Shown here one piece after another: positions 6,534 through 6,640 of a stretch of 10,325 nucleotides of DNA. Below the pieces are notes generated by a model, which was not told the origin of the DNA, did no database searches, and saw only the letters and a list, made by a program, of their open reading frames with translations. The stretch is from a virus (taxonomy: Duplodnaviria > Heunggongvirae > Uroviricota > Caudoviricetes): the IMG/VR virus record IMGVR_UViG_2706794669_000004, one strand, 5' to 3'. The stretch's first letter is position 1; each line of letters starts with the position of its first letter. The translations under genes were made by a program, and so were the position numbers.

Positions 6534-6562
6534 ATAATAACCATATGTCATCACATCTGCAA
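6534..6562 (-). promoter_or_regulatory. Candidate sigma70 promoter for the tRNA cluster
   Basis: Minus strand reads TTGCAG (complement of 6557-6562), 17-nt spacer, TATTAT (complement of 6534-6539), ending 9 nt upstream of the first tRNA 5' end at 6524. Confidence 0.45.
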
Positions 6563-6611
6563 ACTCATCTGACCACCAGCACGTTTAACGTCCTGTGCCG
6601 TTTTTCAGGTA

Positions 6612-6640
6612 TAAAAAAACCCGCTCATCGGCGGGTTTAA
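6612..6640 (-). terminator. Intrinsic terminator between the ORF6N-like gene and the tRNA cluster
   Basis: Minus strand: AAACCCGC-CGATGA-GCGGGTTT followed by TTTTTTTAT; on the plus strand the same hairpin is followed only by TTTAAG. Confidence 0.65.

Follow-up and report, generated by a model that had tools for sequence, protein, structure and literature searches.

A Stx-phage-type late promoter, its putative terminator and a separate tRNA promoter probably lie in a row in a lambdoid prophage

The segment 6696..6524 on the minus strand of IMG/VR record IMGVR_UViG_2706794669_000004 (10,325 nt; this whole stretch is referred to here as the window) probably holds, in a row, the late promoter PR' of a lambdoid prophage, the intrinsic terminator of that promoter and a separate sigma-70 promoter for a cluster of tRNA genes. 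The anatomy, homology, conservation and Q similarity on which this reading is based are presented here, and the PR' start, tR' and tRNA start site of Sakai Sp5 were taken from the literature; from both we infer that PR', the hairpin and the tRNA promoter are active at the window locus.

All window genes are read on the minus strand. Genes for a DnaB-like helicase (10291..8759), RusA (8505..8134) and a Q antiterminator of the 933W/Sp5 type (7758..8165; Pfam PF06530, E = 2.7e-52) lie upstream, and those for lysozyme, Rz, HNH, the small and large terminase subunits and portal come after the tRNAs. With lambdoid late control (Q, PR', qut and tR', as known from lambda 6S RNA and StxS), the window shares a Q gene upstream, lysis and head genes downstream, and a presumably constitutive promoter closely before an intrinsic terminator; it differs in having a module inserted between Q and PR'. 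This insert (6714..7753, minus strand) was assigned to the immI or Gifsy-1 isrK-anrP type from Rfam hits at gathering level, Pfam and promoter scores. It comprises a promoter-like site next to Q (7753..7724; 14.2 bits, 5 nt past the Q stop codon), Rfam matches to c4-a1b1 (7730..7678), isrK (7717..7641), the C4 antisense RNA (7615..7532) and sRNA-Xcc1 (7398..7315), a second promoter-like site (7512..7484; 15.4 bits) and an Ant-like ORF6N gene (long ORF 7475..6714, stop codon 6716..6714; Pfam ORF6N, E = 1.5e-20) that probably starts at ATG 7283. The stretch 7315..7753, with its dense cluster of Rfam RNAs and two strong promoter-like sites, resembles an anti-repressor control module of the P1 immI and Gifsy-1 isrK type.

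A late promoter of 933W type was found between the ORF6N stop codon (6714) and the hairpin by homology to the mapped PR' of Sp5 (minus strand; -35 TTTACG at 6696..6691, 16-nt spacer, -10 TATCCT at 6674..6669). Window 6696..6611 aligns end to end with the PR' and first hairpin of Sp5 (in the Sp5 sequence starting at the end of Q), and the promoter aligns base for base with those of Sp5 (TTTACG-16-TATCAT, start A846 of our locus L079), PhiR40_1 and ev243. By equivalence with A846, the window transcript is predicted to start at A6662. In Sp5, the order of the sequence is TTTACG-16-TATCAT, then GATAAGAGTGGTTAC..., then GAACCCGCCGATGCGCGGGTTTTTTT. The reported PR' start and tR' 3' end of Sp5 are 258 nt apart (Sy et al. 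2020, PMC7547250). With one common offset, the published coordinates fit A846 (7 nt past TATCAT) and T1103 (in the T-tract of tR', the second hairpin) of the newer record, and TTTACG/TATCAT is therefore the PR' of Sp5. Matches to the segment of PR' and hairpin were found in 360 phage records and cover at least 80% of it in 323; most of the 360 are Stx phages, in which the segment lies under or just after Q. The window Q is 81% identical to that of Sakai Sp5 over 124 aa. The first-pass annotation of this DNA had implied a late transcript starting upstream of the ORF6N gene. This placement is not supported: as judged by the homology above, the late transcript probably starts ~100 nt upstream of the tRNA promoter and downstream of the ORF6N gene.

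The position of PR' differs from the usual one, as 1,061 nt separate the Q stop codon from the -35 further downstream (7758 to 6696), and PR' is thus not next to Q. This raises the question of whether the hairpin terminates only the isrK/ORF6N operon, with the late promoter being the site at 7753..7724 just after Q and the tRNAs having their own promoter. That site is strong and stands directly past the Q stop codon, as PR' does in lambda and Sp5; in addition, Gifsy-1 IsrK has been described as made from an antitermination-regulated promoter (Sy et al. 2020, PMC7547250), and the long isrK transcript of Gifsy-1 ends at a terminator after anrP (PMC4825925). However, the site has no similarity to the PR' that accompanies this type of Q, for which reason we rejected it as the late promoter, and the cognate PR' sequence is present at 6696..6662. 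Inserted genes can also displace PR': in ev243 and PhiR40_1, reverse-strand inserts (a porin gene and a hypothetical gene) part the same PR' from Q and leave it just before the late genes, so adjacency of Q and PR' is usual but not universal. We consider a late promoter beside Q to be unlikely and conclude, from these alignments, that in the window the isrK/C4/ORF6N module fills the slot between Q and a displaced PR'.

The hairpin that follows PR' on the minus strand has a stem at 6638..6617 (AAACCCGC-CGATGA-GCGGGTTT) of eight pairs, five of them G-C, with a 6-nt loop, and is directly followed by a T run (6619..6613) of the kind found in intrinsic terminators; three of the seven T pair with AAA and four lie beyond the stem. 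A minus-strand hairpin with a seven-T tail had been reported at this place by the first-pass annotation and was recovered here in full. It ranks first among the terminator-like sites of the window in our terminator scan, and its isolated folding energy is -12.0 kcal/mol (-12.6 kcal/mol for the near-identical hairpin of Sp5); the 58-nt stretch 6662..6605 gave a folding z-score of -2.96 against shuffles. Because terminator-like sites across the whole window were at chance level (15 found vs. 10.3 ± 3.1 expected from shuffles), the case for the hairpin rests on the quality of the site and on its conservation. The stem core CCCGC/GCGGG is invariant among relatives and variation is confined to the loop, which fits a structural constraint without proving one. 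In Sp5, the homologous hairpin occupies +24..+52 of PR'. With PR' located after the ORF6N stop codon and ahead of the hairpin, the hairpin is, on this anatomy, the promoter-proximal terminator of PR' and also the putative end of the isrK/ORF6N transcript. It had previously been taken for the terminator of the accessory gene; a good terminator does stand between ORF6N and the tRNAs, but it belongs to PR', which that reading missed. An Rfam search of 5300..7800 at a permissive threshold yielded neither isrJ nor another family at the hairpin region, only weak leader-terminator matches. The interval that separates the hairpin from the tRNA -35 (6611..6565, 47 nt) is ~58% identical over 36 nt (hand count) to the 3' terminus of the methylase gene of Stx phages, a match too weak for it to be called a methylase remnant with confidence.

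With regard to insulation, a terminator does precede the tRNAs, as had been proposed, but by analogy with Sp5 the shielding that it gives them is probably incomplete. In Sakai lysogens, a 258-nt RNA (StxS-L) from PR' has been seen, i.e., one that extends past the first Sp5 hairpin (Sy et al. 2020, PMC7547250), and some polymerases therefore pass a hairpin nearly identical to ours. Moreover, two related loci (L020 and L059) have lost the hairpin by a clean 38-nt deletion, equivalent to 6604..6641 of the window. Together, the read-through in Sp5 and this loss indicate that the hairpin is neither fully efficient nor indispensable. The deletion leaves PR' of these two loci running straight into the tRNA promoter and the tRNAs. 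No second terminator was found between the hairpin and the tRNAs in the window, and leaky PR' transcripts would traverse the tRNAs as far as a terminator-like site at 5955..5936. Such read-through strengthens the broader point that the tRNAs need not await Q.

The -10 of the window PR' (TATCCT) is weaker than that of Sp5 (TATCAT), and the promoter scores only 8.4 bits. It could be argued that the PR'-like segment no longer works and has been retained as a relic together with the hairpin, in a defective prophage whose late operon is no longer controlled there. The state of the prophage is in line with this argument. A 631-nt IS2 fragment (5151..5781; left end, insC and the start of insD, plus strand) replaces a 441-nt stretch that is present in two otherwise 100% identical loci (L018 and L048), and the matching interval in the relatives L001-L003 contains the holin gene. 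With an IS2 fragment in place of the holin region, the lysis cassette, and in this respect the window prophage, is probably defective. On the other hand, T1, A2, T3 and T6 of the -10 do not vary among the four aligned phages, the inducible ev243 and PhiR40_1 have TATGCT there, and Q is intact as judged by its Pfam PF06530 match. A relic is, in our estimation, improbable.

The putative promoter of the tRNA cassette consists of TTGCAG (6562..6557), a 17-nt spacer and TATTAT (6539..6534) on the minus strand, and is identified by its scan score, its conservation and its match in Sp5. The discriminator TCTGCCTCC (6533..6525, 9 nt) lies between the -10 and the tRNA +1 at 6524. Both hexamers, their spacing and the distance to the first tRNA had been read correctly in the first-pass annotation; the site scores 10.5 bits and its hexamers are conserved in relatives. 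Five of the six -10 positions match TATAAT, including A at position 2 and T at position 6, and in the -35 just TTG agrees with TTGACA (3/6). The consensus scan also returned an alternative register, TTTGCA-18-TATTAT, in which the -35 matches at 4/6 and the total is 9/12. Neither an UP element nor a full extended -10 was found at this promoter. Across the whole window, promoter-like sites were at chance level (10 found vs. 8.2 ± 2.8 expected from shuffles). As neither promoter nor terminator counts exceed those in shuffles, consensus matches are weak evidence on their own. When both strands of the window were scored with an approximate sigma-70 weight matrix, only six sites in total reached 10.5 bits. 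In the 36 nt that precede the first tRNA, and on the correct strand, chance alone would supply ~0.01 site of at least this score; against random 80-nt windows of phage loci, each represented by its best site, p was ~0.016. A second promoter-like sequence with a 10/12 match (TCGGCA-16-TATAAT; 6273..6300, minus strand) reaches from the 3' end of tRNA-Thr into the beginning of tRNA-Gly; this is probably a chance match from tRNA sequence, with TATAAT inside tRNA-Gly.

To evaluate conservation, tRNA-Ile2 loci were gathered from IMG/VR, GTDB genomes, E. coli genomes and Sakai, the gene being either of the window form or of the Stx-phage form; this yielded 197 instances, with 58 distinct upstream 60-mers in phage-type loci. 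An xAxxxT hexamer ends exactly 9 nt before the tRNA +1 in 44 of the 58 (TATTAT in 38, TATCAT in three, TACTAT in three), four of its six positions are invariant in these 44 sequences, and 42 of them also have TTG at -38..-36. Information content is highest at TTGC and tTATTAT, lower in the spacer, and at background level upstream of -39. Upstream of about -39, the sequences represent roughly ten unrelated contexts (judged by eye) that join just before the -35, among them a methylase stop codon, a terminator T run abutting the -35 and an IS-disrupted region. In E. coli E21845, the backbone of Q, ORF6N, PR' and hairpin is found without the tRNA cassette, and similarity to the window stops ~10 nt upstream of the tRNA -35. 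Conserved hexamers across unrelated contexts, together with this boundary, therefore indicate that the promoter is part of the tRNA cassette rather than of the flanking DNA. The promoter variants have a common origin, and their agreement, as read from the aligned loci, shows purifying selection on the hexamers and their position and not repeated invention. A common variant (L090, L106, L118 and ~16 other IMG/VR loci) has the T run of a CCCGC/GCGGG terminator abutting the -35 of the tRNA promoter (GCGGGTTTTTTATTGCGG), and a terminator immediately before the tRNA promoter is thus a recurring arrangement. A scan of species-representative genomes for the 5' half of the tRNA-Ile contributed little: it returned only nine loci, of which several, such as those in Buchnera and Serratia, are unrelated.

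The same promoter is present in Sakai Sp5, where TTGCAG-17-TATTAT-CCTGCGCCC (9 nt in the last part) stands directly before ileZ2. Its TATTAT is at L079 1251..1256, equivalent to NC_002695.2 1,266,750..1,266,755. The promoter is the best-scoring site between tR' and ileZ, with TTGAGC-17-CAGAAT, from which transcripts would start near L079 1210, almost equal (10.3 bits). Our literature searches on ileZ, argN and argO promoters brought up nothing useful; according to the published dRNA-seq study, however, a primary (TEX-enriched) start site drives the tRNAs of the Sp5 Stx2a prophage in a lysogenic culture of Sakai (Sy et al. 2020, PMC7547250). These results bear on whether the promoter-like site before the tRNAs goes unused, the tRNAs being only processed from PR' transcripts that are leaky in the lysogen and Q-driven after induction. 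The weak -35, the chance-level promoter counts of the whole window and the leakiness of the Sp5 hairpin would all agree with this. So would some related tRNA clusters that stand behind a promoter-terminator pair: four clusters (L019, L032, L050 and L054) have no promoter-like site before tRNA-Ile, so the promoter is not obligatory. Against this, conservation peaks exactly at the two hexamers, similarity starts at the -35 across many contexts, and the tRNAs of Sp5 have the primary start site described above. We give the unused site little probability; as the conserved hexamers suggest, a sigma-70 promoter dedicated to the tRNA cluster is very probable, and the cluster can hence be made without Q. 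The earlier proposal that the tRNAs form their own transcription unit, expressible without Q, is in this respect supported by the promoter and by analogy with the published start in Sp5, the question of insulation being treated above.

Two features of the sequence between the -10 and the tRNA are relevant to how this promoter may behave. The discriminator TCTGCCTCC has the high G+C content of those in stable-RNA promoters, which suggests growth-rate or ppGpp/stringent control and not strictly constitutive expression. Furthermore, the promoter lineage as a whole (44/58 distinct upstream sequences) keeps a distance of exactly 9 nt between the -10 and the mature 5' end of tRNA-Ile2, and in the window all bases from after G6530 (the fourth base past the -10) to the tRNA +1 are pyrimidines. 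With a normal start 6-10 nt past the -10, the 9-nt gap would leave a leader of 0-3 nt. A transcript that is (nearly) leaderless in this way, with little or no RNase P cleavage and possibly a 5' triphosphate on tRNA-Ile2, is a tentative suggestion that we regard as somewhat doubtful, and the fixed gap is the one feature of the locus that may repay attention.

The cluster (6524..6214, minus strand; ARAGORN and Rfam) contains a putative tRNA-Ile2(CAU) at 6524..6448, tRNA-Arg(UCU) at 6446..6370, tRNA-Thr(UGU) at 6367..6292 and tRNA-Gly(UCC) at 6288..6214. All four would read A-ending codons. The first was called 'Met(cat)' by ARAGORN, and near-identical genes in near-identical loci of RefSeq relatives are annotated as tRNA-Ile (ileZ type). 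C4-G69 and C5-G68, which we take to be TilS determinants, are visible in it, and the tRNA probably reads AUA after lysidine modification. A 3' trailer of the tRNA unit (5930..6213, minus strand; delimited by the terminator scan and a conserved block) ends at the first good terminator-like site, whose stem (5955..5936) precedes six consecutive T (TTTTTTG). As judged from its sequence, the Q-independent tRNA transcript probably terminates at this site, which is kept in 26 of the 53 window-type loci with enough sequence. Downstream of the tRNAs, a 432-nt block (5782..6213) is 99% conserved with E. coli prophages. The block has no annotated gene and contains a long inverted repeat at ~6100..6020 as well as the terminator-like site just described. 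It could host a small RNA; prophage Pas sRNAs have been reported beside holin genes (bioRxiv 10.64898/2026.05.13.724894).

The proposed mechanism would operate as follows. A PR' of the 933W/Stx-phage type has apparently been displaced from Q by an isrK/C4/ORF6N anti-repressor module of ~1 kb. Without Q, the terminator, located 24-50 nt into the PR' transcript, would halt most PR' transcripts and yield a ~50-nt RNA, and the hairpin would also halt read-through from the isrK/ORF6N unit. The sigma-70 promoter 9 nt before tRNA-Ile2 and the tRNA genes would move together as a single cassette, which heads the late operon. In the lysogen, Ile2(AUA), Arg(AGA), Thr(ACA) and Gly(GGA) tRNAs would be made from this promoter, with PR' read-through probably adding to them; the predicted precursor of ~600 nt, probably ending at 5955..5936, would be processed to the four tRNAs. 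Upon induction, Q made from the early transcript would load onto and modify polymerase at PR', which would then ignore the hairpin and later terminators and transcribe the late genes, with the tRNAs also forming the first part of the late transcript.

The closest known system is that of the Stx phages 933W and Sakai Sp5 (ileZ-argN-argO). They share with the window tRNA-Ile2(CAU) as the first gene, the promoter layout TTGCAG-17-TATTAT-9 nt, tRNAs downstream of a 933W-type PR' and hairpin, and a similar Q. The tRNA sets differ (Ile2-Arg(UCU)-Thr-Gly in the window vs. Ile2-Arg(UCG)-Arg(UCU) in Sp5 and 933W), and the window, when compared with Sp5, has no StxS region, second tR', comparably long methylase remnant or stx genes. 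The distance from the T run of the hairpin to the tRNA -35 is ~47 nt in the window vs. ~330 nt in Sp5, and PR' is ~1 kb away from Q, unlike in Sp5. In lambda, the short late-promoter RNA is 194 nt long. The short PR' RNA predicted for the window (~50 nt) would also be much shorter than the 258 nt of Sp5 (PMC7547250). An independently transcribed tRNA set downstream of PR' and tR' is already documented for Sp5, and the window locus is a compact variant of it in which the tRNA set differs and PR' is displaced.

Gifsy-1 offers a second comparison, its antQ-isrK-orf45-anrP-isrJ region (Hershko-Shalev et al. 2016, PMC4825925; PMC2330248) having the same order of Q, isrK-like RNA, anti-repressor and short promoter-plus-terminator unit. 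In Gifsy-1, the last position is held by IsrJ, an RNA of 74 nt just after anrP that has a start and a terminator of its own (PMC4825925, PMC2330248). By its position, which matches that of the PR'-plus-hairpin unit of the window, IsrJ may be the short late-promoter RNA of Gifsy-1. The two differ in that the window has no Rfam isrJ match and that tRNAs at this place are not reported for Gifsy-1. The cassette also recalls prophage morons, which are self-contained inserts of promoter, gene and terminator (Hendrix and colleagues): it has its own promoter, a terminator-like site after it and a left boundary coinciding with the promoter. It differs from morons in its cargo, which is tRNA and not a protein gene, and in a downstream terminator found in only about half of the close relatives.

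With regard to distribution, at least 80% of 6500..6720 was found in only 9 of 5,426 complete E. coli genomes, at ~91% identity, and the window arrangement at high identity was found in none of these 5,426 genomes. Several IMG/VR contigs are 100% identical to the window over kilobases.

For annotation and experiments, our results imply that the late promoter of such prophages is not always beside Q. A reporter fusion of 6525..6660, as suggested in the first-pass annotation, would include the hairpin and exclude PR'. Codon use in the window genes is modest for the codons concerned (per 1000 codons: AUA 6.7, AGA 5.5, ACA 14.5, GGA 10.6). These rates are roughly 1.3-2.5 times typical E. coli values. 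If the proposed arrangement is true, tRNAs for AUA, AGA, ACA and GGA would be supplied to the host during lysogeny and not only after induction, and translation of horizontally acquired, A/T-rich genes could be eased.
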